A stretch of 64,000 nt of DNA from assembly GCF_055900595.2 (NCBI RefSeq), contig NZ_CM148325.1. The stretch is one strand, 5' to 3'. Shown here one piece after another: positions 204-61,877 of this stretch. The notes beneath the pieces were generated by a model, which was not told the DNA's origin, made no database searches, and saw only the letters and a list, made by a program, of their open reading frames with translations. The first letter of the stretch is position 1. The number at the start of each line of letters is the position of its first letter. The position numbers were made by a program, and so were the translations under genes.

Positions 204-1154
204 TTATAGTTTGACGGCAAGAAGATCTTCCAGTTTGCGTTGATCAACGGCGAACAGGCGGATGCCTTCAGAGAGTTTTTCTACCGCCATTGCATCCTGA
301 TTGTGCTCCCAACGGAACTCCGCTTCGCTCATCGGGGCTGGGCGTGGGAACGTCTGAGAAGGCGGGATTAATTTACGCACTACTGGAGAAACTTTTTCCT
401 GCAGCTCCTTCAGCAAATTCGGCGCAATAGTCAGTCGATCGCAGCCGGTTAAGGCGAGGATTTGTTCGGTGCGACGGAAGCTCGCGCCCATTACAATGGT
501 TTCGTAGTGGTGTTGCTTATAGTAGTCGTAGATATTGCGCACTGACTTAACGCCCGGATCTTCTTCCACCACATACGGGTCCATCGGCTTACGCGCCTGA
601 TACCAGTCATAAATACGCCCGACAAACGGCGAAATCAGAAAAACGCCTGCTTCTGCACAGGCCCGCGCCTGAGCAAAAGAAAACAGTAGCGTCAGGTTGC
701 AGTTAATACCTTCTTTTTCCAGTTCTTCTGCCGCGCGAATTCCTTCCCAGGTTGAAGCCAGCTTGATCAGAATACGTGATTTCTCAACGCCTTGTTGCTG
801 ATACAAGTCCACCAAATGGCGCGCCTTCTCAATACTTTTTTCTTTATCAAAAGAGAGGCGTGCATCAACTTCTGTTGACACGCGACCGGGTACGATTTTG
901 AGAATTTCAGTACCGAAATTGACCGCCAGTTTGTCACATGCAGCGACCACCTGTTGTTCCTGGGTCTTGCCATTTTTTTTACCCCAGGCGATAGCATCGT
1001 CTATTAAATGCTCATATTGTGATAATCCGGCAGCCTTGAGTAACAGCGAAGGATTGGTGGTGGCATCCTGGGGATGATAATGGCGAATGGACTCAATATC
1101 GCCGCTGTCTGCCACGACAGTGGTGAACTGTTTGATGCCGTCTAACTCGTTCAT
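204..1154 (-). CDS. talA: transaldolase A
   Basis: 316-aa ORF in track; transaldolase sequence; position upstream of tktB and divergent from maeB. Confidence 0.93.
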
Positions 1155-1442: not shown

Positions 1443-3722
1443 ATGGATGACCAGTTAAAACAAAGTGCACTTGATTTCCATGAATTTCCAGTTCCAGGGA
1501 AAATCCAGGTTTCTCCAACCAAGCCTCTGGCAACGCAGCGCGATCTGGCGCTGGCCTACTCACCAGGCGTTGCCGCACCTTGTCTAGAAATCGAAAAAGA
1601 CCCGTTAAAAGCCTACAAATATACCGCTCGTGGTAACCTGGTGGCGGTGATCTCTAACGGTACGGCGGTGCTGGGGTTAGGCAACATTGGCGCGCTGGCA
1701 GGCAAACCGGTGATGGAAGGCAAGGGCGTTCTGTTTAAGAAATTCGCCGGGATTGATGTATTTGACATTGAAGTTGATGAACTTGACCCGGACAAATTTA
1801 TTGAAGTTGTCGCTGCGCTCGAACCGACCTTCGGCGGCATCAACCTCGAAGACATTAAAGCGCCAGAATGTTTCTATATTGAACAGAAACTGCGCGAGCG
1901 GATGAATATTCCAGTATTCCACGACGATCAGCACGGCACGGCAATTATCAGCACTGCAGCCATCCTCAACGGATTGCGCGTGGTGGAGAAAAACATCTCC
2001 GACGTGCGGATGGTGGTTTCCGGCGCGGGTGCAGCAGCAATTGCCTGTATGAACCTGCTGGTGGCGCTGGGGCTGCAAAAACATAACATCGTGGTTTGTG
2101 ATTCAAAAGGCGTTATCTATCAGGGCCGTGAGCCAAATATGGCGGAAACCAAAGCCGCATATGCGGTGGTAGATGACGGCAAACGTACCCTCGATGATGT
2201 AATTGAAGGCGCGGATATTTTCCTGGGCTGTTCCGGCCCGAAAGTGCTGACCCAGGAAATGGTTAAGAAAATGGCTCGTGCGCCGATGATCCTGGCGCTT
2301 GCGAACCCGGAACCAGAAATTCTGCCGCCGCTGGCGAAAGAAGTGCGTCCGGATGCCATCATCTGTACCGGCCGTTCCGACTACCCGAACCAGGTTAATA
2401 ACGTGCTTTGCTTCCCATTCATCTTCCGTGGCGCGTTGGACGTTGGTGCAACAGCCATCAACGAGGAAATGAAACTGGCGGCGGTACGCGCGATTGCAGA
2501 ACTGGCCCATGCGGAACAGAGCGAAGTCGTTGCTTCGGCGTATGGCGATCAAGATCTGAGCTTCGGCCCGGAATACATCATTCCAAAACCGTTTGATCCG
2601 CGTTTGATCGTTAAGATCGCTCCTGCGGTCGCTAAAGCGGCGATGGAGTCGGGCGTGGCGACGCGTCCGATTGCTGATTTCGACGTCTACATCGACAAGC
2701 TGACTGAGTTCGTTTACAAAACCAACCTGTTTATGAAGCCGATTTTCTCCCAGGCCCGCAAAGCGCCGAAGCGCGTTGTTTTACCGGAAGGGGAAGAGGC
2801 ACGCGTTCTGCATGCTACTCAGGAACTGGTGACGCTGGGACTGGCGAAACCGATCCTTATCGGTCGTCCGAACGTGATCGAAATGCGCATTCAAAAACTG
2901 GGCTTGCAGATCAAAGCGGGCGTTGATTTTGAGATCGTCAATAACGAATCCGATCCGCGTTTTAAAGAATACTGGACCGAATACTTCCAGATCATGAAGC
3001 GCCGTGGTGTAACTCAGGAGCAGGCACAGCGGGCACTGATCAGTAACCCGACAGTGATCGGCGCGATCATGGTTCAGCGTGGCGAAGCCGATGCAATGAT
3101 TTGCGGTACGGTGGGCGATTATCATGAACACTTCAGCGTGGTGAAAAATGTCTTTGGTTATCGCGATGGCGTTCACACCGCAGGCGCAATGAACGCGCTG
3201 CTATTGCCGAGTGGTAACACTTTTATTGCCGATACCTACGTCAATGACGAGCCAGACGCAGAAGAGTTGGCGGAGATCACCTTGATGGCGGCAGAAACTG
3301 TTCGTCGTTTTGGTATTGAGCCGCGTGTGGCTCTGTTGTCACACTCCAACTTTGGTTCTTCTGACTGCCCGTCGTCGAGCAAAATGCGTCAAGCGCTGGA
3401 ACTGGTCAGGGAGCGTGCGCCAGAACTGATGATTGATGGTGAAATGCACGGCGATGCAGCGCTGGTGGAAGCGATTCGCAGCGATCGTATGCCGGACAGC
3501 CCTTTGAAAGGTTCCGCCAATATTCTGGTGATGCCGAACATGGAAGCTGCCCGTATTAGTTACAACTTACTGCGCGTTTCCAGCTCGGAAGGTGTGACTG
3601 TCGGTCCGGTGCTGATGGGTGTGGCGAAACCGGTTCACGTGTTAACACCAATCGCATCCGTACGTCGTATCGTCAACATGGTGGCGCTGGCCGTGGTTGA
3701 AGCGCAAACCCAACCGCTGTAA
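1443..3722 (+). CDS. maeB: NADP-dependent malic enzyme (malic enzyme domain fused to PTA-like domain)
   Basis: 759-aa ORF; N-terminal malic-enzyme and C-terminal phosphotransacetylase-like regions; K-12 synteny. Confidence 0.93.
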
Positions 3723-3740
3723 TTCATTCTTAACTCTCAC

Positions 3741-3775
3741 GCTTACCCTGAATATTCAGGGTAAGCGGTTTTACT
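3741..3775 (+). terminator. rho-independent terminator downstream of maeB
   Basis: Inverted repeat cgcttaccctg-aatatt-cagggtaagcg followed by a T-run, 19 bp after the maeB stop. Confidence 0.6.
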
Positions 3776-4013
3776 GCAATATATTAGTAAAGCTTATTAC
3801 TAAGTTTTCGAGTAATAAAAAAGCAGCATATAAACTATCTCGATATTATTTTATTTATATTCATGCGTTGCATATGAAAGTTTATGCATCACAGTAAATA
3901 TCTCTCCATTCTTAGTGATCTACCTCACCTTTTAAACGCGCTTGCCGAATTTTGTTATTTACTCTGACGAAAAATTGTCACGATACACGCAAGTTTTTCA
4001 CAGGCGGCGACTC

Positions 4014-4349
4014 ATGGATAAAGAACGCATCATTCAGGAATTTGTGCCCGGCAAACAGGTCACACTGGCGCATCTCATCGCGCATCCCGGCGAGGAACTG
4101 GCGAAGAAAATCGGCGTTCCGGATGCGGGCGCAATCGGCATTATGACGCTAACACCCGGCGAAACGGCGATGATCGCCGGTGATTTAGCGCTGAAAGCCG
4201 CCGATGTGCATATCGGTTTTCTCGACCGTTTTAGCGGCGCGCTGGTGATTTATGGCTCGGTGGGTGCAGTAGAAGAAGCGTTATCACAAACCGTCAGTGG
4301 TTTAGGTCGCTTATTAAATTATACGCTGTGTGAAATGACCAAAAGTTAA
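4014..4349 (+). CDS. eutS: ethanolamine utilisation microcompartment shell protein EutS
   Basis: Internal ATG of track ORF 3942-4349; product [15 protein letters not shown]... (111 aa), BMC shell family; first gene of eut operon. Confidence 0.88.
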
Positions 4350-4361
4350 TACGAGGCATTC

Positions 4362-4841
4362 ATGAAACGAATTGCGTTTGTGGGTACCGTCGGGGCAGGA
4401 AAAACAACGTTATTTAATGCGTTGCAGGGGAATTATACCCTCGCCAGAAAAACACAGGCCGTGGAATTTAATGATAAGGGCGATATTGATACGCCGGGTG
4501 AATATTTTAGCCATCCCCGCTGGTATCACGCCTTAATTACCACGCTACAGGATGTGGACATGCTGATTTATGTCCACGGCGCGAATGACCCGGAAAGCCG
4601 ATTGCCTGCCGGGTTGCTGGATATTGGTGCCAGCAAACGGCAAATCGCCGTCATCAGTAAAACGGACATGCCGGATGCTGACGTCGCAGCAACGCGAAAG
4701 TTATTGCTTGAAACTGGTTTTGAAGAGCCGATTTTCGAGCTAAACAGCCACGACCCGCAAAGCGTGCAGCAACTGGTGAATTATCTGGCATCTCTCACCG
4801 AACAGGAGGAAGCAGGTGAAAAAACTCATCACAGCGAATGA
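4362..4841 (+). CDS. eutP: ethanolamine utilisation GTPase/acetate kinase-like protein EutP
   Basis: 159-aa ORF with P-loop GTVGAGKTT; operon position. Confidence 0.9.
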   Translation: MKRIAFVGTVGAGKTTLFNALQGNYTLARKTQAVEFNDKGDIDTPGEYFSHPRWYHALITTLQDVDMLIYVHGANDPESRLPAGLLDIGASKRQIAVISKTDMPDADVAATRKLLLETGFEEPIFELNSHDPQSVQQLVNYLASLTEQEEAGEKTHHSE

Positions 4842-5517
4842 TATTCGTGAAGCACATGCGCGCGGCGAACAGGCAATGTCTGTGGTTCTGCGCGCCAGCA
4901 TTATTACCCCGGAAGCCCGCGAAGTGGCGGACTTGTTGGGGTTTACCATCACCGAATGCACTGAATCGACGCCAGTAGCGGCATCTGTTCCCGTCAGCGT
5001 GCCTGCCGATAAAACTGAAAGCCAGCGTATCCGCGAAACCATCATCGCCCAGCTGCCGGAAGGCCAGTTTACCGAAAGCCTGGTCGCGCAGCTGATGGAA
5101 AAAGTGATGAAGGAAAAACAGTCGCTGGAGCAGGGGGCAATGCAGCCGAGTTTTAAATCGGTGACCGGCAAAGGCGGCATCAAAGTTATTGATGGCAGCA
5201 GCGTGAAGTTTGGTCGTTTCGATGGCGCGGAACCGCACTGCGTAGGCTTGACTGATCTCGTGACCGGAGACGACGGCAGCAGCATGGCCGCCGGTTTTAT
5301 GCAGTGGGAGAACGCCTTCTTCCCGTGGACCCTGAACTACGACGAAATCGACATGGTACTGGAAGGGGAGCTTCATGTTCGCCATGAAGGCGAAACCATG
5401 ATCGCTAAAGCAGGCGACGTGATGTTTATCCCGAAAGGTTCCAGCATCGAATTTGGTACGACATCCAGTGTGAAATTCCTGTATGTCGCCTGGCCGGCTA
5501 ACTGGCAATCCCTATGA
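4816..5517 (+). CDS. eutQ: ethanolamine utilisation cupin protein EutQ
   Basis: 233-aa ORF; overlaps eutP 3' end by 26 nt; operon position. Confidence 0.9.
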   Translation: MKKLITANDIREAHARGEQAMSVVLRASIITPEAREVADLLGFTITECTESTPVAASVPVSVPADKTESQRIRETIIAQLPEGQFTESLVAQLMEKVMKEKQSLEQGAMQPSFKSVTGKGGIKVIDGSSVKFGRFDGAEPHCVGLTDLVTGDDGSSMAAGFMQWENAFFPWTLNYDEIDMVLEGELHVRHEGETMIAKAGDVMFIPKGSSIEFGTTSSVKFLYVAWPANWQSL

Positions 5518-6317
5518 AAGATTTCATCACCGAAGCATGGCTAAGAGCGAACCATACGCTCAGCGAAGGCGCAGAGATCCATCTCCCTGCGGACAGTCGC
5601 CTGACGCCCTCTGCCCGGGAGTTACTGGAAAGCCGCCATCTGCGCATCAAGTTTATTGACGAGCAGGGCCGCCTGTTTGTTGACGATGAACAGCAGCAGC
5701 TACAGCCCGTTCACGTGCTGACCAGTAGTGATGAACATCCGCAGGCGTGCTGCGAACTGTGTCACCAGCCAGTGGCGAAAAAGCCGGACACGCTGACTCA
5801 CCTGTCGGCGGAAAAAATGGTCGCCAAAAGCGATCCGCGCCTGGGTTTTCGCGCTGTTCTCGACAGCACCATTGCGCTGGTAGTGTGGCTGCAAATTGAG
5901 CTGACAGAACCGTGGCAGCCGTGGCTGGCGGATATCCGTTCGCGTCTTGGCAACATTATGCGTGCCGATGTGTTGGGCGAACCGATGGGCTGCCAGGCGA
6001 TTGTCGGGTTTTCTGACGAAGATCTGCATCGACTTTCTCACCAGCCACTGCGTTATCTCGACCACGATCATCTGGTGCCGGAAGCCAGCCACGGACGCGA
6101 TGCGGCGTTGCTGAATCTGCTACGCACCAAAGTGCGGGAAACCGAAACCGTCGCGGCGCAGGTGTTTATTACCCGTAGTTTTGAAGTATTACGCCCGGAC
6201 ATCTTGCAGGCGCTGAACCGCCTTTCCAGCACGGTTTACGTGATGATGATTTTGAGCGTAACGAAGCAGCCGCTAACGGTGAAGCAGATCCAACAACGAC
6301 TGGGGGAAACGCAATGA
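5514..6317 (+). CDS. eutT: ethanolamine utilisation corrinoid adenosyltransferase EutT
   Basis: 267-aa ORF; 4-nt overlap with eutQ; operon position. Confidence 0.9.
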
Positions 6318-7330
6318 TTATTGAACGTTGTCGTGAACTGGCGTTGCGAGCGCCCGCCAGAGTGGTTTTTCCTGATGCGTTAGACCAACGCGTGCTGAAA
6401 GCTGCGCAATATTTACATCAACAAGGTCTGGCAACGCCCATTCTGGTCGCCAATCCGTTTGAACTTCGTCAGTTTGCGCTCAGTCACGGCGTGGCGATGG
6501 ACGGGCTACAGGTGATAGATCCGCATGGCAACCTCGCAATGCGGGAAGAATTTGCTCTCCGCTGGCTGGCCCGTGCGGGCGAAAAAACGCCGCCGGATGC
6601 GCTGGAAAAACTCACCGATCCGCTGATGTTCGCTGCCGCAATGGTCAGCGCCGGGACAGCGGATGTCTGTATCGCGGGCAATCTCTCTTCCACGGCAAAT
6701 GTGCTGCGTGCCGGATTACGCATTATTGGCTTACAGCCAGGCTGTAAAACGCTCTCCTCCATTTTCCTGATGCTGCCACAGTACAGTGGCCCCGCGTTGG
6801 GCTTTGCCGATTGCAGCGTAGTGCCACAGCCGACGGCGGCACAACTGGCGGATATCGCGCTTGCCAGCGCCGAAACCTGGCGAGCCATCACCGGAGAAGA
6901 GCCGCGCGTGGCGATGTTGTCGTTCTCCAGTAACGGCAGCGCCCGTCACCCCTGCGTTGCCAACGTGCAGCAAGCGACAGAAATCGTCCGTGAGCGCGCA
7001 CCGCAGCTGGTCGTCGATGGCGAGTTGCAGTTTGACGCCGCCTTTGTGCCAGAAGTGGCGGCGCAAAAAGCGCCAGCCAGCCCGCTACAGGGCAAAGCCA
7101 ATGTGATGGTTTTTCCGTCGCTGGAGGCGGGAAATATTGGCTACAAAATCGCACAACGACTTGGCGGATATCGTGCCGTCGGGCCATTGATACAAGGACT
7201 TGCCGCGCCGATGCACGATCTCTCTCGTGGTTGTAGCGTGCAGGAAATTATCGAGCTGGCGCTGGTGGCAGCTGTGCCGCGTCAGACAGAAGTGAACCGC
7301 GAAAGCAGTTTACAAACACTGGTTGAATGA
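6314..7330 (+). CDS. eutD: ethanolamine utilisation phosphotransacetylase EutD
   Basis: 338-aa PTA-family ORF; 4-nt overlap with eutT. Confidence 0.9.
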
Positions 7331-7368
7331 ACGGTCCCGTTCTGGACCCTGATAAAGAGGAAAGCACA

Positions 7369-7662
7369 ATGGAAGCATTAGGAATGATCGAAACCCGGGG
7401 CCTGGTTGCACTGATTGAGGCTTCTGATGCGATGGTGAAAGCTGCGCGCGTCAAACTGGTTGGTGTTAAGCAGATTGGTGGCGGCCTGTGTACTGCCATG
7501 GTTCGCGGTGATGTTGCAGCCTGTAAAGCCGCGACCGATGCCGGTGCCGCAGCGGCACAGCGTATCGGTGAACTGGTATCCGTACATGTTATTCCGCGTC
7601 CGCACGGCGATCTGGAAGAGGTCTTCCCGATCGGCCTGAAAGGCGATAGCAGCAACCTGTAA
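7369..7662 (+). CDS. eutM: microcompartment shell protein EutM (BMC-H)
   Basis: Internal ATG of ORF 7327-7662; product [28 protein letters not shown]... (97 aa). Confidence 0.9.
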
Positions 7663-7767
7663 TCACCCTGTGTGACGTCGATCCGGGCGTCACGCTCTCT
7701 CCGTTTTCTTTTACCTTCCGCGGAGGGTAAGGAGAGCTTTTACCTGAAATACGCCACGGAGGCGGGT

Positions 7768-8055
7768 ATGAAACTGGCAGTCGTCACAGGACAAATTGTT
7801 TGTACCGTACGCCATCACGGACTGGCGCATGACAAATTGCTGATGGTGGAAATGATTGATCCACAAGGTAATCCTGATGGGCAATGTGCTGTCGCCATCG
7901 ACAATATTGGCGCGGGAACCGGGGAGTGGGTGTTGCTGGTGAGTGGCAGTTCCGCCCGCCAGGCGCATAAAAGCGAAACGTCACCGGTCGATCTGTGCGT
8001 AATTGGCATTGTCGATGAGGTGGTCTCTGGCGGTCAGGTAATTTTCCACAAATAA
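7768..8055 (+). CDS. eutN: microcompartment vertex protein EutN
   Basis: Internal ATG of ORF 7672-8055; product MKLAVVTGQIVCTVRHHGL... (95 aa). Confidence 0.88.
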   Translation: MKLAVVTGQIVCTVRHHGLAHDKLLMVEMIDPQGNPDGQCAVAIDNIGAGTGEWVLLVSGSSARQAHKSETSPVDLCVIGIVDEVVSGGQVIFHK

Positions 8056-8066
8056 GGCAGAACATC

Positions 8067-9470
8067 ATGAATCAACAGGATATTGAACAGGTGGTGAAAG
8101 CGGTACTGCTGAAAATGCAAAGCAGTGACACGTCGCCCGCCGCCGTTCATGAGATGGGCGTTTTTGCTTCCCTGGATGACGCCGTTGCGGCGGCCAAAAT
8201 TGCCCAGCAAGGGTTAAAAAGCGTGGCAATGCGCCAGTTAGCCATTGCTGCTATTCGTGAAGCAGGCGAAAAACACGCCAGAGATTTAGCGGAACTTGCC
8301 GTCAGTGAAACGGGTATGGGCCGCGTAGAAGATAAATTTGCCAAAAACGTCGCTCAGGCACGCGGTACGCCAGGCGTTGAGTGCCTCTCTCCACAGGTGC
8401 TGACCGGTGACAACGGCCTGACTTTAATTGAAAACGCGCCCTGGGGCGTGGTGGCTTCGGTGACGCCTTCCACTAACCCGGCGGCAACCGTAATTAATAA
8501 CGCCATCAGCCTGATTGCCGCGGGCAACAGCGTCATTTTTGCCCCGCATCCGGCGGCGAAAAAAGTCTCTCAACGGGCTATTACGTTGCTCAACCAGGCG
8601 ATTGTTGCCGCAGGCGGGCCGGAAAACTTACTGGTTACTGTGGCAAATCCAGATATCGAAACCGCGCAACGCTTATTCAAGTTTCCGGGCATCGGTCTGT
8701 TGGTGGTGACCGGCGGCGAAGCGGTGGTGGAAGCGGCGCGCAAACACACCAATAAACGTCTGATTGCCGCAGGTGCTGGCAACCCGCCGGTGGTGGTGGA
8801 TGAAACCGCCGACCTCGCCCGTGCCGCTCAGTCTATCGTCAAAGGCGCTTCTTTCGATAACAACATCATTTGTGCCGATGAAAAGGTACTGATTGTTGTT
8901 GATAGCGTAGCCGATGAACTGATGCGTCTGATGGAAGGCCAGCACGCGGTGAAACTGACCGCAGAACAGGCGCAGCGACTGCAACCGGTGTTGCTGAAAA
9001 ATATCGACGAGCGCGGAAAAGGCACCGTCAGCCGTGACTGGGTGGGGCGCGATGCGGCGAAAATCGCGGCGGCAATCGGCCTGAACGTGCCGCAAGAAAC
9101 GCGCTTGCTGTTTGTAGAAACCACCGAAGAACATCCGTTTGCCGTAACCGAATTGATGATGCCGGTGCTGCCGGTCGTGCGCGTCGCCAACGTGGAGGAT
9201 GCCATTGCGCTGGCGGTGAAACTGGAAGGCGGTTGCCACCACACGGCGGCAATGCACTCGCGCAATATCGAGAACATGAACCAAATGGCGAACGCCATTG
9301 ATACCAGTATTTTCGTTAAGAACGGACCGTGCATTGCCGGGCTGGGGCTGGGCGGGGAAGGCTGGACCACGATGACCATCACTACGCCAACCGGTGAAGG
9401 GGTAACCAGCGCGCGTACGTTTGTCCGTCTGCGTCGCTGTGTATTAGTCGATGCGTTTCGCATTGTTTAA
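8067..9470 (+). CDS. eutE: CoA-acylating acetaldehyde dehydrogenase EutE
   Basis: 467-aa aldehyde dehydrogenase family ORF; operon position. Confidence 0.92.
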   Translation: MNQQDIEQVVKAVLLKMQSSDTSPAAVHEMGVFASLDDAVAAAKIAQQGLKSVAMRQLAIAAIREAGEKHARDLAELAVSETGMGRVEDKFAKNVAQARGTPGVECLSPQVLTGDNGLTLIENAPWGVVASVTPSTNPAATVINNAISLIAAGNSVIFAPHPAAKKVSQRAITLLNQAIVAAGGPENLLVTVANPDIETAQRLFKFPGIGLLVVTGGEAVVEAARKHTNKRLIAAGAGNPPVVVDETADLARAAQSIVKGASFDNNIICADEKVLIVVDSVADELMRLMEGQHAVKLTAEQAQRLQPVLLKNIDERGKGTVSRDWVGRDAAKIAAAIGLNVPQETRLLFVETTEEHPFAVTELMMPVLPVVRVANVEDAIALAVKLEGGCHHTAAMHSRNIENMNQMANAIDTSIFVKNGPCIAGLGLGGEGWTTMTITTPTGEGVTSARTFVRLRRCVLVDAFRIV

Positions 9471-9480
9471 GGAGTAACCG

Positions 9481-10317
9481 ATGGCGCACGACGAACAATG
9501 GCTTACCCCGCGGCTGCAAACGGCGGCAACGCTGTGTAACCAGACGCCCGCCGCGTCGGAATCTCCGCTGTGGCTGGGGGTGGATCTGGGCACCTGCGAT
9601 GTGGTGTCGATGGTTGTCGACGGCGACGGTCAGCCGGTGGCGGTATGCCTCGACTGGGCCGATGTGGTCCGCGACGGCATCGTCTGGGATTTCTTCGGTG
9701 CTGTCACCATTGTTCGTCGCCATCTCGATACCCTTGAGCAGCAATTTGGTCGCCGTTTTAGCCATGCGGCGACCTCATTTCCTCCTGGTACGGACCCGCG
9801 TATTTCCATCAACGTGCTGGAGTCTGCCGGGCTGGAAGTGAGCCATGTGCTGGATGAGCCAACCGCAGTCGCGGATCTACTGCAACTGGATAACGCAGGC
9901 GTAGTGGATATTGGCGGCGGCACTACCGGAATTGCCATCGTGAAAAAGGGCAAGGTGACTTATTCAGCGGATGAAGCGACCGGCGGACATCACATTTCTC
10001 TGACTCTCGCCGGAAATCGCCGTATTTCGCTGGGAGAGGCAGAGCAGTACAAGCGCGGTCACGGTGACGAGATTTGGCCTGCGGTGAAGCCGGTGTACGA
10101 AAAAATGGCGGACATTGTTGCCCGACATATTGAAGGGCAGGGCATTACTGATTTATGGCTGGCGGGCGGCTCCTGTATGCAACCGGGCGTGGCGGAACTG
10201 TTTTGCAAACAATTCCCGGCGTTACAGGTGCATCTACCGCAGCACAGTTTGTTTATGACCCCGCTGGCGATCGCCAGTAGCGGGCGAGAGAAAGCGGAGG
10301 GGATCTATGCAAAATGA
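9481..10317 (+). CDS. eutJ: ethanolamine utilisation chaperone-like protein EutJ
   Basis: 278-aa ORF with actin/Hsp70-like ATPase motifs (DLGTCD, DIGGGTTG). Confidence 0.9.
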   Translation: MAHDEQWLTPRLQTAATLCNQTPAASESPLWLGVDLGTCDVVSMVVDGDGQPVAVCLDWADVVRDGIVWDFFGAVTIVRRHLDTLEQQFGRRFSHAATSFPPGTDPRISINVLESAGLEVSHVLDEPTAVADLLQLDNAGVVDIGGGTTGIAIVKKGKVTYSADEATGGHHISLTLAGNRRISLGEAEQYKRGHGDEIWPAVKPVYEKMADIVARHIEGQGITDLWLAGGSCMQPGVAELFCKQFPALQVHLPQHSLFMTPLAIASSGREKAEGIYAK

Positions 10318-11494
10318 ATTGCAGACCGCGCTCTTTCAGGCGTTCGATACCCTGAATCTGCAACGGGTAAAAACATTTAGCGTTCCACCGGTGACGCTTT
10401 GCGGCCCGGGCGCGGTGAGCAGTTGCGGACAGCAAGCACAAACGCGTGGGCTGAAACATCTGTTCGTGATGGCAGACAGCTTTTTGCATCAGGCGGGGAT
10501 GACCGCCGGGCTGACGCGCAGTCTGGCCGTTAAAGGCATCGCCATGACGCTCTGGCCATGTCCGGTGGGCGAACCGTGCATCACTGACGTGTGTGCCGCC
10601 GTGGCGCAACTGCGCGAATCAGGCTGTGACGGGGTGATCGCGTTTGGCGGTGGCTCGGTGCTGGATGCGGCAAAAGCCGTTGCGTTGCTGGTGACGAACC
10701 CCGACAGCACGCTGGCAGAAATGTCAGAAACCAGCGTTCTGCAACCGCGTCTGCCGCTGATTGCCATTCCAACTACCGCCGGAACCGGCTCTGAAACCAC
10801 CAATGTAACGGTGATTATCGACGCGGTGAGCGGGCGCAAGCAGGTGTTAGCACATGCCTCGTTGATGCCGGATGTGGCGATTCTCGATGCCGCGCTGACC
10901 GAAGGTGTGCCGTCGCATGTCACGGCAATGACCGGTATCGACGCGTTAACTCATGCCATTGAAGCGTACAGCGCGCTGAACGCTACACCGTTTACCGACA
11001 GTCTGGCGATTGGTGCCATTGCGATGATTGGCAAATCACTGCCGAAAGCAGTGGGCTACGGTCACGACCTTGCCGCGCGCGAGAGTATGTTGCTGGCTTC
11101 ATGCATGGCGGGAATGGCATTTTCCAGTGCCGGACTTGGGTTATGTCACGCGATGGCGCATCAGCCGGGGGCGGCGCTGCATATTCCGCACGGACTGGCG
11201 AACGCCATGCTGCTGCCCACGGTGATGGAGTTTAACCGGATGGTCTGTCGCGAACGCTTTAGTCAGATTGGTCGGGCGCTGCGAACTAAAAAATCCGACG
11301 ATCGTGATGCTATTAACGCGGTAAGTGAGCTGATTGCGGAAGTCGGGATTGGTAAACGACTGGGCGATGTTGGTGCGGCATCTGCGCATTACGGCGCATG
11401 GGCGCAGGCCGCGCTGGAAGATATTTGTCTGCGCAGCAACCCGCGTACCGCCAGCCTGGAGCAGATTGTCGGCTTGTACGCAGCGGCGCAATAA
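10307..11494 (+). CDS. eutG: iron-containing alcohol dehydrogenase EutG
   Basis: 395-aa Fe-ADH family ORF; overlaps eutJ by 11 nt. Confidence 0.9.
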   Translation: MQNELQTALFQAFDTLNLQRVKTFSVPPVTLCGPGAVSSCGQQAQTRGLKHLFVMADSFLHQAGMTAGLTRSLAVKGIAMTLWPCPVGEPCITDVCAAVAQLRESGCDGVIAFGGGSVLDAAKAVALLVTNPDSTLAEMSETSVLQPRLPLIAIPTTAGTGSETTNVTVIIDAVSGRKQVLAHASLMPDVAILDAALTEGVPSHVTAMTGIDALTHAIEAYSALNATPFTDSLAIGAIAMIGKSLPKAVGYGHDLAARESMLLASCMAGMAFSSAGLGLCHAMAHQPGAALHIPHGLANAMLLPTVMEFNRMVCRERFSQIGRALRTKKSDDRDAINAVSELIAEVGIGKRLGDVGAASAHYGAWAQAALEDICLRSNPRTASLEQIVGLYAAAQ

Positions 11495-11496
11495 AT

Positions 11497-11580
<84 letters not shown>

Positions 11581-11610
11581 ATAAATAACAACTAACAGGG
11601 AGTAAAGGCG

Positions 11611-12837
11611 ATGGGAATTAACGAAATCATCATGTACATCATGATGTTCTTTATGCTGATAGCTGCCGTGGACAGGATCCTGTCGCAGTTCGGCGGTTCT
11701 GCTCGTTTCCTCGGTAAGTTCGGTAAAAGTATCGAAGGATCCGGCGGCCAGTTCGAAGAAGGCTTTATGGCAATGGGCGCACTGGGCCTGGCGATGGTCG
11801 GTATGACCGCACTGGCACCAGTTCTGGCCCACGTACTTGGGCCGGTGATTATCCCGGTTTACGAAATGCTCGGTGCTAACCCATCGATGTTCGCCGGAAC
11901 ACTGCTGGCGTGCGACATGGGCGGCTTCTTCCTCGCGAAAGAGCTGGCGGGCGGCGATGTGGCAGCGTGGCTATACTCTGGGTTAATTCTCGGATCGATG
12001 ATGGGGCCAACGATTGTGTTTTCCATTCCGGTGGCGCTCGGCATTATCGAACCTTCTGACCGTCGTTATCTGGCGCTCGGCGTGCTGGCGGGCATTGTGA
12101 CCATTCCAATTGGCTGTATCGCTGGAGGTCTGGTAGCTATGTATTCCGGTGTGCAGATCAACGGGCAGCCGGTGGAATTCACCTTTGCGCTTATCCTGAT
12201 GAATATGATCCCGGTACTTATCGTCGCGGTACTGGTGGCGCTGGGGCTGAAATTCATCCCGGAAAAAATGATCAACGGCTTCCAGATCTTCGCCAAGTTC
12301 CTCGTTGCATTGATCACCCTCGGTCTTGCTGCCGCGGTAGTGAAATTCCTCCTTGGCTGGGAACTGATCCCCGGTCTTGATCCGATCTTTATGGCCCCTG
12401 GCGATAAACCCGGTGAAGTGATGCGCGCCATTGAAGTTATCGGTTCTATCTCCTGCGTGCTGTTAGGGGCGTATCCGATGGTGCTGCTGCTGACCCGCTG
12501 GTTTGAAAAACCGCTGATGAGCGTCGGTAAAGTGCTGAATATGAACAACATCGCGGCAGCCGGCATGGTGGCAACGCTTGCCAACAACATCCCGATGTTT
12601 GGCATGATGAAGCAGATGGATACCCGCGGCAAAGTCATCAACTGTGCCTTCGCCGTTTCCGCTGCTTTCGCCCTGGGTGACCACTTAGGCTTCGCCGCTG
12701 CCAACATGAACGCCATGATCTTCCCGATGATTGTCGGCAAGTTGATCGGCGGCGTAACGGCGATTGGCGTGGCGATGATGCTGGTGCCAAAAGAAGACGC
12801 GACCGCGGCTAAAACCGAAGCGGAGGCACAATCGTGA
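11611..12837 (+). CDS. eutH: ethanolamine permease EutH
   Basis: 408-aa polytopic membrane ORF; operon position. Confidence 0.92.
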   Translation: MGINEIIMYIMMFFMLIAAVDRILSQFGGSARFLGKFGKSIEGSGGQFEEGFMAMGALGLAMVGMTALAPVLAHVLGPVIIPVYEMLGANPSMFAGTLLACDMGGFFLAKELAGGDVAAWLYSGLILGSMMGPTIVFSIPVALGIIEPSDRRYLALGVLAGIVTIPIGCIAGGLVAMYSGVQINGQPVEFTFALILMNMIPVLIVAVLVALGLKFIPEKMINGFQIFAKFLVALITLGLAAAVVKFLLGWELIPGLDPIFMAPGDKPGEVMRAIEVIGSISCVLLGAYPMVLLLTRWFEKPLMSVGKVLNMNNIAAAGMVATLANNIPMFGMMKQMDTRGKVINCAFAVSAAFALGDHLGFAAANMNAMIFPMIVGKLIGGVTAIGVAMMLVPKEDATAAKTEAEAQS

Positions 12838-14237
12838 ACACTCGCCAGCTACTGAGCGTCGGTATCGATATCGGCACTACCACCACCCAGGTGATCTTCT
12901 CCCACCTGGAGCTGGTTAACCGTGCGGCGGTGTCGCAGGTGCCGCGCTACGAATTCATCAAACGCGAAATTAGCTGGCAAAGCCCGGTGTTCTTTACCCC
13001 TGTCGATAAACTGGGCGGTTTAAAAGAAGCGGAACTGAAAACCTTAATCCTCGAGCAATATCAGGCTGCGGGCATTGCGCCGGAAAGCGTTGATTCTGGT
13101 GCCATCATCATCACCGGTGAAAGCGCGAAAACCCGCAATGCTCGCCCGGCGGTGATGACGCTCTCCCAGTCGCTTGGCGATTTTGTCGTCGCCAGCGCCG
13201 GGCCGCATCTCGAATCCGTGATCGCCGGTCACGGTGCCGGGGCGCAAACCCTTTCTGAACAACGGCTGTGTCGGGTACTGAATATCGATATTGGCGGTGG
13301 CACCGCGAACTACGCTTTGTTCGATGCCGGAAAAATCAGCGGCACCGCTTGCCTCAACGTCGGCGGTCGCCTGCTGGAAACCGACAGCCAGGGGCGCGTG
13401 GTTTACGCTCATAAACCGGGGCAGATGATAGTGGATGAGTGCTTCGGTGCAGGCACTGACGCCCGTTCGCTGACTGGCGCGCAGCTGGTGCAGGTTACCC
13501 GGCGGATGGCGGAACTGATTGTCGAAGTGATTGACGGAACGCTCTCGCCGCTCGCGCAGGCATTGATGCAAACCGGTTTGCTGCCCGCAGGTGTTACGCC
13601 AGAAATCATTACGCTTTCTGGCGGCGTGGGCGAATGTTATCGCCACCAGCCCGCTGACCCGTTCTGTTTTGCCGATATTGGCCCGCTTCTGGCAACGGCG
13701 CTGCATGACCATCCGCGCCTGCGTGAGATGAACGTGCAGTTTCCGGCGCAAACCGTACGCGCCACGGTGATTGGCGCGGGCGCACATACCCTTTCGCTCT
13801 CTGGCAGCACAATCTGGCTGGAGGGGGTACAACTGCCGCTGCGCAATTTGCCGGTGGCGATCCCAATTGATGAAACGGATCTGGTGAGTGCCTGGCAACA
13901 AGCGCTAATTCAGCTGGATCTTTGCCCCAAAACTGACGCGTACGTGCTGGCGCTTCCCGCCTCGCTGCCTGTGCGTTACGCCGCGGTACTGACGGTCATC
14001 AACGCGCTGGTCGATTTCGTCGCGCGTTTTCCGAATCCGCATCCCCTGCTGGTGGTGGCCGGGCAGGATTTTGGTAAAGCTCTGGGCATGTTGTTGCGCC
14101 CACAGCTACAACAACTCCCGTTGGCAGTCATTGACGAAGTGATTGTCCGCGCGGGGGACTATATCGACATTGGTACGCCTCTTTTTGGCGGATCGGTTGT
14201 GCCGGTGACGGTGAAATCACTCGCATTTCCTTCCTGA
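12834..14237 (+). CDS. eutA: ethanolamine ammonia-lyase reactivase EutA
   Basis: 467-aa ORF; 4-nt overlap with eutH. Confidence 0.92.
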   Translation: MNTRQLLSVGIDIGTTTTQVIFSHLELVNRAAVSQVPRYEFIKREISWQSPVFFTPVDKLGGLKEAELKTLILEQYQAAGIAPESVDSGAIIITGESAKTRNARPAVMTLSQSLGDFVVASAGPHLESVIAGHGAGAQTLSEQRLCRVLNIDIGGGTANYALFDAGKISGTACLNVGGRLLETDSQGRVVYAHKPGQMIVDECFGAGTDARSLTGAQLVQVTRRMAELIVEVIDGTLSPLAQALMQTGLLPAGVTPEIITLSGGVGECYRHQPADPFCFADIGPLLATALHDHPRLREMNVQFPAQTVRATVIGAGAHTLSLSGSTIWLEGVQLPLRNLPVAIPIDETDLVSAWQQALIQLDLCPKTDAYVLALPASLPVRYAAVLTVINALVDFVARFPNPHPLLVVAGQDFGKALGMLLRPQLQQLPLAVIDEVIVRAGDYIDIGTPLFGGSVVPVTVKSLAFPS

Positions 14238-14248
14238 GGGAACGACTT

Positions 14249-15610
14249 ATGAAACTAAAGACCACATTGTTCGGCAATGTATATCAGTTTAAGGATGTAA
14301 AAGAGGTGCTGGCTAAAGCCAACGAACTGCGTTCGGGGGATGTGCTGGCGGGCGTTGCAGCGGCAAGTTCACAGGAGCGCGTGGCGGCAAAGCAGGTGTT
14401 GTCGGAAATGACCGTAGCGGACATCCGCAATAATCCGGTGATTGCCTATGAAGATGACTGCGTGACGCGGCTGATTCAGGACGACGTTAACGAAACGGCC
14501 TACAACCAGATTAAAAACTGGAGCATCAGCGAACTGCGTGAGTATGTGCTGAGTGATGAAACCAGCGTGGACGACATTGCCTTTACCCGCAAAGGGCTGA
14601 CCTCGGAAGTGGTCGCGGCGGTAGCGAAGATTTGCTCCAACGCGGACCTGATCTACGGCGCGAAGAAAATGCCGATTATCAAAAAGGCCAATACTACCAT
14701 CGGTATTCCGGGCACCTTTAGCGCCCGTTTGCAGCCGAACGATACCCGTGACGACGTGCAGAGTATCGCCGCGCAAATCTACGAAGGGCTTTCCTTCGGG
14801 GTAGGCGATGCGGTGATCGGCGTTAACCCGGTGACTGACGACGTGGAAAACTTAAGCCGCGTGCTGGATACCATCTATGGCGTGATCGACAAATTCAACA
14901 TTCCGACCCAGGGCTGCGTGCTGGCGCACGTTACTACCCAGATTGAAGCGATCCGTCGCGGCGCGCCGGGCGGGCTGATTTTCCAGAGCATCTGCGGCAG
15001 CGAAAAAGGGCTGAAAGAATTTGGCGTGGAGCTGGCGATGCTCGATGAAGCACGCGCAGTGGGCGCAGAGTTTAACCGTATCGCCGGGGAAAACTGCCTC
15101 TACTTCGAAACCGGGCAAGGTTCTGCGCTATCGGCGGGCGCTAACTTCGGCGCAGATCAGGTAACGATGGAAGCGCGTAACTACGGGCTGGCACGTCATT
15201 ACGATCCGTTTATCGTCAACACCGTAGTGGGCTTTATTGGGCCAGAGTATCTCTACAACGACCGGCAGATTATCCGTGCGGGCTTAGAAGATCACTTTAT
15301 GGGCAAACTGAGCGGCATTTCTATGGGCTGTGACTGCTGCTACACCAACCACGCTGACGCTGACCAGAACCTCAACGAAAACCTGATGATCCTGCTCGCC
15401 ACCGCAGGCTGCAACTACATCATGGGGATGCCGCTGGGTGATGACATCATGCTCAACTACCAGACCACCGCATTCCACGATACCGCCACTGTGCGTCAGT
15501 TACTCAACCTGCGCCCGTCACCGGAGTTTGAACGCTGGCTGGAAAGCATGGGCATTATGGCAAACGGTCGCCTGACCAAACGGGCGGGCGATCCGTCACT
15601 GTTCTTCTGA
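14249..15610 (+). CDS. eutB: ethanolamine ammonia-lyase heavy chain EutB
   Basis: 453-aa ORF starting 11 nt after eutA stop. Confidence 0.93.
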   Translation: MKLKTTLFGNVYQFKDVKEVLAKANELRSGDVLAGVAAASSQERVAAKQVLSEMTVADIRNNPVIAYEDDCVTRLIQDDVNETAYNQIKNWSISELREYVLSDETSVDDIAFTRKGLTSEVVAAVAKICSNADLIYGAKKMPIIKKANTTIGIPGTFSARLQPNDTRDDVQSIAAQIYEGLSFGVGDAVIGVNPVTDDVENLSRVLDTIYGVIDKFNIPTQGCVLAHVTTQIEAIRRGAPGGLIFQSICGSEKGLKEFGVELAMLDEARAVGAEFNRIAGENCLYFETGQGSALSAGANFGADQVTMEARNYGLARHYDPFIVNTVVGFIGPEYLYNDRQIIRAGLEDHFMGKLSGISMGCDCCYTNHADADQNLNENLMILLATAGCNYIMGMPLGDDIMLNYQTTAFHDTATVRQLLNLRPSPEFERWLESMGIMANGRLTKRAGDPSLFF

Positions 15611-15630
15611 TGACGCGGAGATAACACATC

Positions 15631-16518
15631 ATGGATCAAAAACAGATTGAAGAAATTGTACGCAGCGTGATGGCGTCAATGGGACAAGCGGCCCCCGCGC
15701 CGTCAGAAGCAAAATGCGCCACTACCACCTGTGCAGCACCGATGACCTCGGAAAGCTGCGCGCTGGATTTAGGTTCCGCAGAAGCAAAAGCGTGGATTGG
15801 CGTTGAAAACCCACATCGCGCAGACGTATTAACTGAACTGCGCCGCAGCACCGTGGCTCGCGTCTGTACCGGTCGTGCCGGTCCGCGTCCGCGTACCCAG
15901 GCGTTGCTGCGTTTCCTGGCCGATCACTCTCGTTCGAAAGACACCGTACTGAAAGAAGTGCCGGAAGAGTGGGTGAAAGCGCAGGGCTTGCTGGAGGTCC
16001 GCTCTGAAATTAGCGACAAAAATCTCTATCTGACTCGCCCGGATATGGGCCGCCGCTTGTGTGCAGAGGCTGTTGAAGCGCTGAAAGCGCAGTGTGTTGC
16101 CAATCCGGACGTACAGGTCGTTATTTCTGATGGCCTGTCAACTGATGCGATCACCGTGAACTACGAAGAGATCCTGCCACCGCTGATGGCGGGCCTGAAA
16201 CAGGCCGGGTTGAAAGTCGGCACACCGTTCTTTGTGCGTTACGGTCGCGTGAAGATTGAAGATCAGATTGGCGAACTTCTTGGCGCGAAAGTGGTGATCC
16301 TGCTGGTGGGGGAACGCCCAGGATTAGGGCAGTCAGAAAGCCTCTCCTGCTACGCCGTTTACTCGCCGCGTATGGCAACCACCGTTGAGGCCGATCGCAC
16401 CTGTATCTCTAACATTCACCAGGGCGGCACGCCGCCGGTTGAAGCCGCAGCCGTCATTGTGGATTTGGCGAAACGTATGCTGGAGCAGAAAGCATCCGGC
16501 ATCAACATGACCCGATAA
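15631..16518 (+). CDS. eutC: ethanolamine ammonia-lyase light chain EutC
   Basis: 295-aa ORF; operon position. Confidence 0.93.
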
Positions 16519-16527
16519 GGAGGCATC

Positions 16528-17187
16528 ATGCCAGCTTTAGATTTGATTCGACCGTCGGTAACCGCCATGCGGGTGATTGCCTCTGTCAACGCCGAATTTG
16601 CGCGTGAACTGAAATTGCCGCCGCATATTCGTAGCCTCGGGCTGATTTCTGCTGATTCCGATGACGTCACCTACATTGCGGCTGACGAAGCGACCAAGCA
16701 GGCGATGGTTGAAGTCGTGTATGGTCGCTCGCTGTATGCGGGAGCTGCACACGGGCCGTCACCGACTGCCGGTGAGGTGCTGATTATGCTTGGTGGGCCA
16801 AACCCGGCGGAAGTGCGTGCTGGTCTGGATGCGATGGTTGCGCATATTGAAAATGGCGCTGCTTTCCAGTGGGCTAATGATGCAGAAAACACAGCCTTCC
16901 TGGCGCATGTCGTTTCGCGTACCGGCTCTTATCTCTCATCAACCGCCGGGATCACGCTTGGCGATCCGCTGGCGTATCTGGTGGCACCGCCGCTGGAAGC
17001 GACCTACGGCATTGATGCAGCGTTGAAATCTGCCGACGTGCAGCTGGTGACCTATGTCCCGCCACCGTCTGAAACCAACTACTCGGCAGCATTTTTAACC
17101 GGTAGCCAGGCCGCGTGTAAAGCAGCCTGTAACGCCTTTACCGATGCAGTGCTGGAAATCGCGCGTAATCCAATCCAGCGTGCGTAA
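16528..17187 (+). CDS. eutL: microcompartment shell protein EutL (tandem BMC)
   Basis: 219-aa ORF; operon position. Confidence 0.92.
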
Positions 17188-17193
17188 CGGAGG

Positions 17194-17700
17194 TTGCCGA
17201 TGATCAATGCACTGGGATTGCTGGAAGTGGACGGCATGGTCGCCGCGATAGATGCAGCTGATGCCATGCTCAAAGCAGCTAACGTTCGTCTGCTCAGTCA
17301 CGAAGTGCTTGACCCTGGTCGCCTAACGCTGGTGGTGGAAGGCGATCTGGCGGCGTGTCGTGCGGCGCTGGACGCAGGTTGTGCTGCCGCGATGCGTACC
17401 GGGCGTGTCATCAGCCGTAAGGAGATCGGTCGGCCAGACGATGACACCCAGTGGCTGGTTACTGGCTTTAACCGCCAGCCGAAGCAACCCGTAAAGGAAC
17501 CCGACGCGCCAGTTATCGTCGCGGAATCTGCTGACGAGTTGTTGGCGCTGTTAACATCAGTACGTCAGGGAATGACGGCAGGAGAAGTGGCTGCCCACTT
17601 TGGCTGGCCGCTGGAAAAAGCCAGAAATGCGCTCGAACAGCTCTTTTCTGCCGGGACGTTACGTAAACGCAGTAGTCGTTATCGTCTCAAGCCCCATTAA
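17194..17700 (+). CDS. eutK: microcompartment shell protein EutK
   Basis: 168-aa ORF with BMC domain plus C-terminal basic tail; true start may be the ATG 6 nt downstream. Confidence 0.9.
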   Translation: MPMINALGLLEVDGMVAAIDAADAMLKAANVRLLSHEVLDPGRLTLVVEGDLAACRAALDAGCAAAMRTGRVISRKEIGRPDDDTQWLVTGFNRQPKQPVKEPDAPVIVAESADELLALLTSVRQGMTAGEVAAHFGWPLEKARNALEQLFSAGTLRKRSSRYRLKPH

Positions 17701-17745
17701 CCTGTCGGAGGTGCCGGGTGTCCTACAACACCCGGCATTAACATC

Positions 17746-18798
17746 ATGAAAAAGACCCGTACAGCTAATTTGCACCATCTTTATCATGAACCCTTACCCG
17801 AAAACCTGAAGCTAACGCCGAAGGTCGAAGTGGATAATGTTCATCAACGGCAAACAACGGATGTCTATGAACATGCTTTGACGATTACCGCCTGGCAGCA
17901 GATTTACGATCAGCTGCATCCGGGCAAATTTCATGGTGAATTTACGGAAATTCTGCTCGATGATATTCAGGTTTTCCGTGAATACACGGGGCTGGCGCTG
18001 CGTCAGTCGTGCCTGGTCTGGCCGAATTCGTTCTGGTTTGGCATTCCGGCGACGCGCGGTGAGCAGGGATTTATCGGTTCGCAATGTCTGGGAAGCGCAG
18101 AAATAGCGACGCGCCCTGGTGGAACCGAGTTTGAATTAAGTACGCCGGACGATTACACGATCCTTGGCGTGGTGCTTTCTGAAGATGTCATCACCCGGCA
18201 GGCTAACTTTTTGCATAACCCGGAAAGGGTGCTGCATATGTTACGTAACCAGTCGGCGCTGGAAGTGAAAGAGCAGCATAAAGCCGCGCTGTGGGGCTTT
18301 GTCCAACAGGCTCTGGCGACATTTTGCGAGAACCCGGAAAATCTCCATCAGCCTGCAGTGCGAAAAGTGCTGGGGGATAATTTGCTAATGGCGATGGGGG
18401 CGATGCTGGAAGAAGCGCAGCCAATGGTGACGGTGGAAAGCATCAGTCATCAGAGTTACCGTCGGTTGCTTTCCCGCGCCCGTGAATATGTGCTGGAAAA
18501 CATGTCCGAACCGGTGACGGTGCTGGACTTGTGTAATCAACTGCACGTCAGTCGCCGCACCTTGCAAAACGCATTTCACGCTATTTTGGGCATTGGCCCG
18601 AATGCGTGGCTGAAACGCATTCGCCTGAACGCCGTGCGCCGTGAACTGATTAGCCCGTGGTCGCAAAGTATGACGGTAAAAGACGCCGCCATGCAGTGGG
18701 GATTCTGGCATCTTGGGCAGTTTGCCACGGATTATCAGCAATTGTTTGCAGAAAAGCCTTCACTGACGCTGCATCAGCGGATGCAGGAACTGGAGTGA
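17746..18798 (+). CDS. eutR: AraC-family transcriptional activator of eut operon
   Basis: 350-aa ORF with C-terminal AraC-type HTH; last gene of operon. Confidence 0.92.
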
Positions 18799-18874
18799 GG
18801 GTGAGGGCCGGATGAGGATGGTGTTTGATCCGGTCCATAGTGAAGTTACAAATTACGTTGAATTGCTATGTATT

Positions 18875-19192
18875 TTATTGCCCAACGGGATAGGCGATAA
18901 ACAAACCGACAATTGTCAAAATACACGCCAGCAGGAATACCAACATACAATTTACGCGCTTTCGCGAAATTTTAAATAAATAGCAAAATAGTGTTGTTAC
19001 CACGATCACTACCGGGATAGTCATAAAATTAATAACGATGAGTGCTATCAATCCAAAACTTGCTCCTCCACCGTGGGGAATAAAAATGTGTTCTTCAAAA
19101 TAAACTTCTATAGCAAATGCCAGCACACATCCCAGAAAACTCATATCCAGATGAGGGTGCCATTTACTTTCTTTATGTGATGTGTCTGACAT
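18875..19192 (-). CDS. hypothetical small membrane protein (about three predicted TM segments), not recognised
   Basis: 105-aa ORF; hydrophobic stretches LGCVLAFAIEVYF, FGLIALIVINFMTIPVVIVVTTLFCYLF, MLVFLLACILTIVGLFIAYPV; SD-like gggag about 9 nt upstream of ATG; 40 bp downstream of the 420-aa ORF on same strand; AT-rich. Confidence 0.6.
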   Translation of the reverse strand: MSDTSHKESKWHPHLDMSFLGCVLAFAIEVYFEEHIFIPHGGGASFGLIALIVINFMTIPVVIVVTTLFCYLFKISRKRVNCMLVFLLACILTIVGLFIAYPVGQ

Positions 19193-19232
19193 TCTTAAAT
19201 GCTCCCGTGAGCAAACTGGCGCAAAATAATTT

Positions 19233-60589: not shown

Positions 60590-60604
60590 GTTTGACATAG
60601 CATG

Positions 60605-60626
60605 AAACATAGCAAAGGCTATGTTT
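60605..60626. promoter_or_regulatory. MntR operator (perfect palindrome) upstream of mntH
   Basis: aaacatagc-aaag-gctatgttt, 9-bp perfect inverted repeat ending 12 bp upstream of mntH ATG. Confidence 0.7.
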
Positions 60627-60629
60627 TAG

Positions 60630-61877
<1,248 letters not shown>

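Follow-up and report, generated by a model that had tools for sequence, protein, structure and literature searches.

The five gene overlaps of an Escherichia coli eut operon are likely ordinary same-strand overlaps whose mode of translation initiation would differ by junction

About one in three prokaryotic genes shares bases with an adjacent gene, more than 80% of the overlaps are shorter than 30 bp and a spacing of -4 nt (four shared nucleotides) is the commonest among same-strand genes (PMC12548453, PMC10666635). Translational coupling works best at spacings of -4 to +3 nt and drops faster with overlap than with spacing, and a systematic reporter series found no coupling at about -25 nt (reviewed in PMC12548453). 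A spacing between -8 and +10 nt has been taken as a predictor of reinitiation, and gene pairs in this range are enriched for heteromeric complexes (PMC10666635); four of five native E. coli pairs at -4 nt were strictly coupled when tested (PMC6728339). Longer out-of-frame overlaps are ascribed to an upstream gene that was lengthened at its 3′ end after stop-codon loss or a frameshift (Fukuda et al. 2003; Johnson and Chisholm 2004, cited in PMC12548453). The closest described locus is the EUT1 operon of Salmonella enterica, where the overlap of eutP and eutQ has been stated for strain LT2: codons 1–9 of eutQ overlap eutP, and residues 1–9 were therefore kept in deletions (PMC12487888). In the same organism EutQ binds the shell through its N-terminal H1/H2 region, which shell–cargo association requires, and residues 1–99, counted from the same start, target GFP to the compartment (PMC12487888). 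A paper devoted to overlapping genes of Salmonella does not mention eut (PMC3843671).

The locus analysed here lies in a window of 64,000 nucleotides of E. coli DNA (contig NZ_CM148325.1 of RefSeq assembly GCF_055900595.2) that holds a complete, uninterrupted eut operon of 17 genes on the + strand, in the order eutSPQTDMNEJGHABCLKR (Table 1). Its identity as an EUT1-type operon is given by the gene order and by matching protein families (RefSeq annotation of the identical sequence; Pfam matches for EutP, EutQ and EutT), and it is unbroken at eutA–eutB, where the gap is 11 nt. Positions 3900–18900 are 100% identical over 15 kb to eight E. coli chromosomes in RefSeq. The allele is rare, since identity of at least 99% over the operon was found in 8 of 5428 matching E. 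coli records and nearly all others fall between 95 and 99%. Gene coordinates are those of the PGAP annotation of the closest record, NZ_CM128605.1, moved to the window (window position = coordinate in that locus, L001, + 3699), and the start and stop codons of each junction were also read directly from the sequence. Outside eut, NZ_CM128605.1 differs by an IS3 element in pdxK, an IS421 element near nupC and a frameshifted talA; in the window both IS elements are absent and the talA reading frame is intact (316 aa, 204–1154, minus strand).

The comparison with Salmonella that the initial annotation had proposed gives a match junction for junction, save for a difference of one codon at eutP/eutQ. 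The S. enterica operon shares the gene order, the GTG start of eutQ with its SD, the N-terminus MKKLITAND and an eutP that runs into eutQ, and the subspecies arizonae and diarizonae show the same spacings at eutQ/eutT (-4), eutT/eutD (-4) and eutJ/eutG (-11). The Salmonella eutP/eutQ overlap is 23 nt (TAA within GCT AAC) against 26 nt in the window (TGA within AAT GAT). In VR50, a typical E. coli strain, the junction sequence matches that of the window exactly between the SD and the eutP stop, both included. Three of the five pairs (eutQ/eutT, eutT/eutD and eutH/eutA) fall in the NTGA class at -4 nt and so carry the motif of the coupled E. coli pairs hyfHI, astDB and menDH, two of the three with a typical intragenic SD. 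The eut pairs are not known to be subunits of one complex. The other two, eutP/eutQ (-26) and eutJ/eutG (-11), resemble the overlaps formed by 3′ extension in having an unconstrained tail that reaches to the first off-frame stop; nothing sets them apart from that class and the eut case is textbook-like.

Table 1. Positions of the eut genes, of the overlaps and SD sequences at their junctions, and of other overlaps used for comparison
Feature	Position	Strand	Details
eutS	4014–4349	+	PGAP transfer
eutP	4362–4841	+	159 aa; Pfam PF10662 (PduV-EutP), residues 1–143; aa 144–159 variable tail
eutQ	4816–5517	+	233 aa, GTG start; Pfam PF06249, residues 85–232; PDB 2PYT, residues 102–232
eutT	5514–6317	+	267 aa; Pfam PF01923
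eutD (pta)	6314–7330	+	338 aa; PGAP transfer
eutM	7369–7662	+	PGAP transfer
eutN	7768–8055	+	PGAP transfer
eutE	8067–9470	+	PGAP transfer
eutJ	9481–10317	+	278 aa; PGAP transfer
eutG	10307–11494	+	395 aa; PGAP transfer
eutH	11611–12837	+	408 aa; PGAP transfer
eutA	12834–14237	+	467 aa, GTG start; PGAP transfer
eutB	14249–15610	+	PGAP transfer
eutC	15631–16518	+	PGAP transfer
eutL	16528–17187	+	PGAP transfer
eutK	17200–17700	+	PGAP transfer
eutR	17746–18798	+	PGAP transfer
eutP/eutQ overlap	4816–4841	+	26 nt, GTG start, TGA stop at 4839–4841
eutQ/eutT overlap	5514–5517	+	4 nt, ATGA
eutT/eutD overlap	6314–6317	+	4 nt, ATGA
eutJ/eutG overlap	10307–10317	+	11 nt, ATGCAAAATGA; eutJ stop within eutG codons 3–4 (AAT GAA)
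eutH/eutA overlap	12834–12837	+	4 nt, GTGA
eutQ SD AGGAGG	4804–4809	+	within eutP CDS, 6 nt before GTG; anti-SD duplex -10.3 kcal/mol
eutD SD-like GGGGGA	6302–6307	+	inside eutT
eutG SD GGAGG	10296–10300	+	inside eutJ
eutA SD GGAGG	12822–12826	+	inside eutH
ypeA/yfeZ overlap	23032–23045		14 nt
cysP/cysT overlap	32059		1 nt (TAATG)
cysT/cysW overlap	32892		1 nt (TAATG)
cysW/cysA overlap	33757–33767		11 nt, ATGAGCATTGA; ATGnnnnnTGA, like eutJ/eutG
upstream ORF/mntH overlap	uORF 60602–60646; mntH ATG 60639		8 nt; uORF of 14 codons, PGAP annotation in related record

All five overlaps claimed initially were recovered at the claimed sizes (26, 4, 4, 11 and 4 nt), by codon reading as well as in the RefSeq annotation of the identical operon, and their placement is confirmed. 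The label ATGA-type that had been given to the 4-nt overlaps applies to eutQ/eutT and eutT/eutD but not to eutH/eutA, which reads GTGA. In each of these co-directional pairs at least one nucleotide is shared between correctly bounded genes, and at the remaining 11 eut junctions the genes are +9 to +116 nt apart. The annotated start of every downstream gene (eutQ, eutT, eutD, eutG and eutA) is the earliest possible start codon of its reading frame, so that alternatives could lie downstream only. Starts were compared over 55 EutQ-relative loci with 10-kb flanks, one genome per species, from Escherichia, Salmonella, Citrobacter, Klebsiella, Pseudocitrobacter, Intestinirhabdus, Buttiauxella, Yokenella, Pluralibacter, Morganella, Serratia, Entomohabitans, Pseudomonas and Xenophilus; the eut genes of these relatives were located by blastp and each start was assigned by homology. 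Citrobacter koseri NCTC10786 (L045) and parts of a further locus (L014), with apparent frameshifts throughout, were left out of the junction displays and SD comparisons, and the cross-genus junction totals given below still include a few of their junctions. The eutQ start column, conserved in about 50 loci, is GTG or ATG in all usable ones, followed by an almost unchanged MKKLITANDIR, and conserved N-termini were likewise found across genera for EutT (M(K/N)DFITE.WLR), EutD (MIIERCR or MLLDRCR), EutG (MQ.ELQTALFQA) and EutA (M.TRQLLSVGID). The use of alternative downstream starts, which the initial annotation had named as evidence that would count against its reading, is thus unsupported, given start columns and N-termini conserved from residue 2 across genera.

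The frequency of overlaps in eut is no higher than chance or the local background. Overlaps occur at 5 of the 16 eut junctions and in 5 of 28 other same-strand pairs of the window (Fisher p = 0.46), and when only pairs at most 20 nt apart are considered the shares are 5/12 and 5/11 (p = 1.0); the 28 background pairs are adjacent same-strand CDSs of the homologous RefSeq annotation, minus the two IS elements missing from the window. Off-frame stops occur in the eut genes at 0.046–0.055 per codon, which means that a frame stays open for at least eight codons about two-thirds of the time (chance of an 8-codon off-frame run-on ~0.64–0.69, once a stop at the start codon has been missed). Such overlaps would then originate simply by the upstream frame running on to the first chance stop within codons 1–9 of the downstream gene. 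A convergent overlap of 4 nt is also present in the window, between ypeB and yfeH (46656–46659).

At the eutP/eutQ junction, positions 4816–4841 read GTG AAA AAA CTC ATC ACA GCG AAT GA.. (MKKLITAND) in the eutQ frame and end EutP with ..GEKTHHSE before TGA in the eutP frame. The EutQ start column and MKKLITANDIR are fixed while the junction varies from -26 to +15 nt: an overlap of 26 nt is shared by Escherichia, C. sedlakii, Yokenella and Entomohabitans and one of 23 nt by Salmonella, Citrobacter, Klebsiella and Pseudocitrobacter, while Buttiauxella, Pseudomonas and Xenophilus have the ATGA form at -4 nt. Spacers replace the overlap in two Serratia (+4 or +11 nt), in Morganella and Pluralibacter (both +12 nt) and in Intestinirhabdus (+15 nt). 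What separates the -23 from the -26 form is a synonymous eutQ change, GCT AAC (TAA in the eutP frame) against GCG AAT GAT (TGA one codon later). Among the 18 distinct sequences with a GTG start and an overlap of 23 or 26 nt, six of the seven variable columns fall on the third position of eutQ codons, which is the first position of eutP codons, and the same nucleotides encode two EutQ N-terminal peptides versus ten EutP tails. The tail of EutP is hypervariable across genera and lies beyond the PduV-EutP domain, which ends at residue 143 of 159. From the third-position changes, the two versus ten peptides and the end of the EutP domain it follows that the shared 26 nt are constrained by EutQ alone, and that the EutP tail is unselected run-on sequence. 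The strong conservation of the EutQ N-terminus is explained by the H1/H2 shell-binding region, which starts there; EutQ is laid out as an N-terminal shell- and cargo-binding region followed by a C-terminal cupin domain. A search of the PDB returned no solved structure of EutP and, for EutQ, structures of the C-terminal cupin only.

The SD of eutQ is among the strongest in the operon and is kept in all loci with the -23 or -26 form, its mean energy being -10.4 to -11.1 kcal/mol with the long overlaps, -7.9 at ATGA junctions and -5.9 at +12 junctions. Translation of eutQ would most likely begin mainly de novo on its own AGGAGG-N6-GTG, a strong site from which EutQ could be made at about 14 times the level of EutP, with the rare ribosomes on eutP only traversing it. 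In this arrangement the 26-nt overlap is unlikely to couple eutQ translation to that of eutP. Sigma-70-like promoter sites, sought as a cause of the excess of EutQ over EutP, were not found in 3700–5600, the inside of eutP included. In E. coli E2863 (NZ_AP018802.1, 3080298–3080622) an IS1203 insertion leaves only the last 66 nt of eutP, with the SD, start and CDS of eutQ intact, which offers a natural test of the need of eutQ for eutP translation.

The eutQ/eutT junction is the sole one at which the sequence itself argues, suggestively, for coupling. In the window eutT has no SD (-1.7 kcal/mol). The spacing of this pair ranges from -4 to +12 nt among genera; the SD is missing in 8 of 8 distinct sequences at -4 (mean -1.6 kcal/mol) and present in all 17 distinct sequences in which the two genes lie +4 to +12 nt apart (-6.6 to -8.2). 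Its absence from the -4 forms is due to the conserved C-terminal codons of EutQ, ..AACTGGCAATC.., which fill that position. Since it has no SD, eutT would most likely be translated at a low level through termination at the eutQ stop and reinitiation, which would amount to true yet inefficient coupling. Citrobacter sp. NCU1 carries a 156-nt insertion between eutQ and eutT.

The three other downstream genes have favourable anti-SD energies (eutG -10.0, eutA -9.5 and eutD -8.4 kcal/mol). The overlap of eutT and eutD is found in 47 of 48 loci (-4 nt in 29 and -11 nt in 18), that of eutJ and eutG in 34 of 43 (-11 nt in 32 of the 43), and eutH/eutA overlap by 4 nt in 32 of 41 loci, the spacing being +9 to +11 nt in Pseudomonas and Xenophilus. 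Initiation at eutD, eutG and eutA may occur by SD-assisted reinitiation, de novo or in both ways.

Several readings compete with the one in which eutP simply runs on into an independently initiated eutQ. The start of eutQ could be misannotated, the true one lying downstream (next in-frame ATG at 4876, Met21) with no functional 26-nt overlap; GTG is the rarer start codon and automatic pipelines lean to long reading frames, but from Escherichia through to Pseudomonas and Xenophilus residues 2–20 hardly vary, ATG or GTG always fills the start column, with a conserved SD 5–7 nt upstream, and the substitutions in 4816–4841 are synonymous in the eutQ frame. The conserved start columns and N-termini, the 20 residues that would be lost at Met21 and the targeting by Salmonella EutQ 1–99 from the same start (PMC12487888) make the overlaps real and no artefacts of annotation, and only a very slim chance is left to misannotation. 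Coupling through RNA unfolding, in which the eutQ ribosome-binding site sits in a hairpin opened only by ribosomes reaching the end of eutP, draws on the opening cost of that site (-18 to +10 around the start), 11.7 kcal/mol and above the operon median, so that eutP ribosomes unfolding the mRNA could help eutQ. A stable structure hiding the downstream site was, however, seen neither in the 120-nt region of eutP/eutQ, whose folding is not more stable than that of shuffled controls (z = -0.21; equalled or surpassed by 79 of 200 shuffles), nor at eutQ/eutT, where the same holds (z = -0.40), and an EutQ level far above that of EutP (PMC11334477) is hard to square with one opening per eutP ribosome, all of which leaves this reading rather improbable. 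Recoding is a further idea: as the eutQ frame is +1 of eutP, slippage of tRNA-Lys by +1 along the A6 run (4819–4824; eutP GAA AAA ACT), with AAA to AAA re-pairing possible at 4821–4824, would yield an EutP–EutQ fusion. Here the A-run simply encodes the two lysines of EutQ and is interrupted in Klebsiella species (GTG AAG AAA), the zero frame offers neither a slow codon nor a stop to stimulate slippage, the eutP frame of many genera closes ahead of the eutQ start or at it and a fusion protein is unreported, so that such a slip is scarcely believable. Two bolder proposals, that slippage by a few of the eutP ribosomes yields a fusion anchoring the cytosolic, GTPase-like EutP to the shell-binding EutQ or, more mildly, that the ATGA without SD is a deliberate device holding EutT at a low, constant proportion of the very abundant EutQ, are given hardly any weight, because the A6 run is accounted for by EutQ lysine codons and is not kept in Klebsiella.

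Another reading is that all five overlaps serve tight termination–reinitiation coupling and thereby fixed ratios of microcompartment components. It has in its favour three junctions at the canonical NTGA -4 spacing, at which four of five native pairs were strictly coupled (PMC6728339), the persistence of the eutT/eutD, eutJ/eutG and eutH/eutA overlaps in most loci and the lack of an SD for eutT wherever it overlaps eutQ. Against it, none of the shell genes eutS, eutM, eutN, eutL and eutK belongs to an overlapping pair, and EutB/EutC, the only obligate hetero-oligomer, is encoded by genes +20 nt apart. Additionally, the range for reinitiation of -8 to +10 nt (best -4 to +3) takes in eutQ/eutT, eutT/eutD and eutH/eutA and leaves out eutJ/eutG at -11 and eutP/eutQ at -26 (PMC10666635), the latter near the -25 nt at which no coupling was found (PMC12548453), the eutP/eutQ and eutQ/eutT junctions alternate between overlap and spacer among genera, and the frequency of overlaps equals the local background. 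Abundances also speak against it: label-free proteomics of E. coli K-12 W3110, a strain other than that of the window, on ethanolamine and B12 gave EutQ 100, EutM 96, EutL 39, EutB 37, EutE 27, EutC 24, EutS 11, EutD 10, EutK 8, EutG 7, EutP 7 and EutN 1, with EutT unlisted (PMC11334477). With EutQ at 100 and EutP, EutD and EutG at 7, 10 and 7, outputs across the overlapping junctions are far from proportional, although the 14-fold ratio of EutQ to EutP alone cannot exclude some coupling, as the level of a protein depends on its stability and not only on its synthesis; the missing EutT may be a matter of detectability and not of low synthesis. A single coupling device behind all five overlaps is thus judged unlikely.

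It is considerably more plausible that the eut overlaps are ordinary same-strand overlaps in a compact operon, with no uniform coupling device and with a likely mode of initiation, as we infer it from the sequence, that varies by junction. What had been proposed initially, tight coupling of microcompartment components, survives in part, as coupling is suggested at eutQ/eutT and plausible at the three NTGA spacings; it is not well supported for eutP/eutQ with its strong SD, for spacings of -26 and -11 nt or for proteins of such uneven abundance, nor for microcompartment parts as a group, given the five shell genes outside all overlapping pairs, the spaced eutB and eutC and the labile spacing at eutP/eutQ and eutQ/eutT. 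The accompanying remark that the overlaps are a known and unremarkable property is borne out: the Salmonella eutP/eutQ overlap is on record (PMC12487888), -4 nt is the commonest spacing (PMC12548453, PMC10666635) and the eut overlaps are already known and ordinary. The direction of constraint in the eutP/eutQ overlap and the dichotomy between SD and overlap at eutT are small additions.

The discovery value is accordingly little; the eut gene boundaries in the window are confirmed as correct and the overlaps as routine. For practical work, a deletion or tagging of eutP must keep about 40 nt of its 3′ end (4804–4841), which hold the SD, the start and the first nine codons of eutQ. An overlap should not be taken as proof of equimolar coupling, EutQ far exceeding EutP. 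On the other hand, eutT is probably the one gene of the operon whose translation depends on its upstream neighbour, which would be relevant to the refactoring of eut genes for synthetic microcompartments.

Some observations were made on neighbouring features. In Escherichia, an ATG at the eutD stop opens an in-frame extension of eutM by 14 codons (7327–7368), and the resulting 111-aa reading frame, starting from the ATGA at 7327–7330, was considered as a sixth overlap and rejected, being closed upstream in most other genera; the annotated start of the 97-aa eutM at 7369 is the conserved one, since most of them have a stop 12 nt ahead of the eutM ATG. The eutD–eutM spacer holds a small hairpin (GGTCC-cgttct-GGACC, 7333–7348), which directly follows the eutD stop and precedes the eutM SD. 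Salmonella, Citrobacter, Klebsiella, Yokenella, Morganella and Serratia have an element that resembles it (GGTCCC-tgat-GGGATC), and larger GC-rich hairpins are found at the same place in Pseudomonas. No compensatory pairs appeared in the alignment of this hairpin, whose conservation is of sequence only, and a scan of the whole window against Rfam returned tRNAs and RtT only, with no match in eut. The hairpin could be an element of mRNA processing or stability ahead of a highly expressed shell gene (EutM 96 versus EutD 10). The same spacer is enlarged to 243 nt in Buttiauxella agrestis through tandem copies of a unit of ~31 nt (gatcccctctcctggggagagggaggaaaca), which look like a REP-like or palindromic array within the operon.

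The spacer between eutM and eutN (7663–7767) is unusually long for one within the operon, with 105 nt in the window and 52–146 nt across all taxa compared. Opening the eutN ribosome-binding site has a high calculated cost (13.2 kcal/mol), and no other Eut protein is as scarce as EutN (1 versus 96 for EutM); spacer and binding site may act as a translational throttle for this vertex protein. Downstream of the operon, between eutR and hemF, which are neighbours in K-12, the window carries on the minus strand (18875–20495) the genes of a 105-aa hypothetical membrane-like protein and of a 420-aa DUF1963 protein, a two-gene segment that may be a strain-variable insert.
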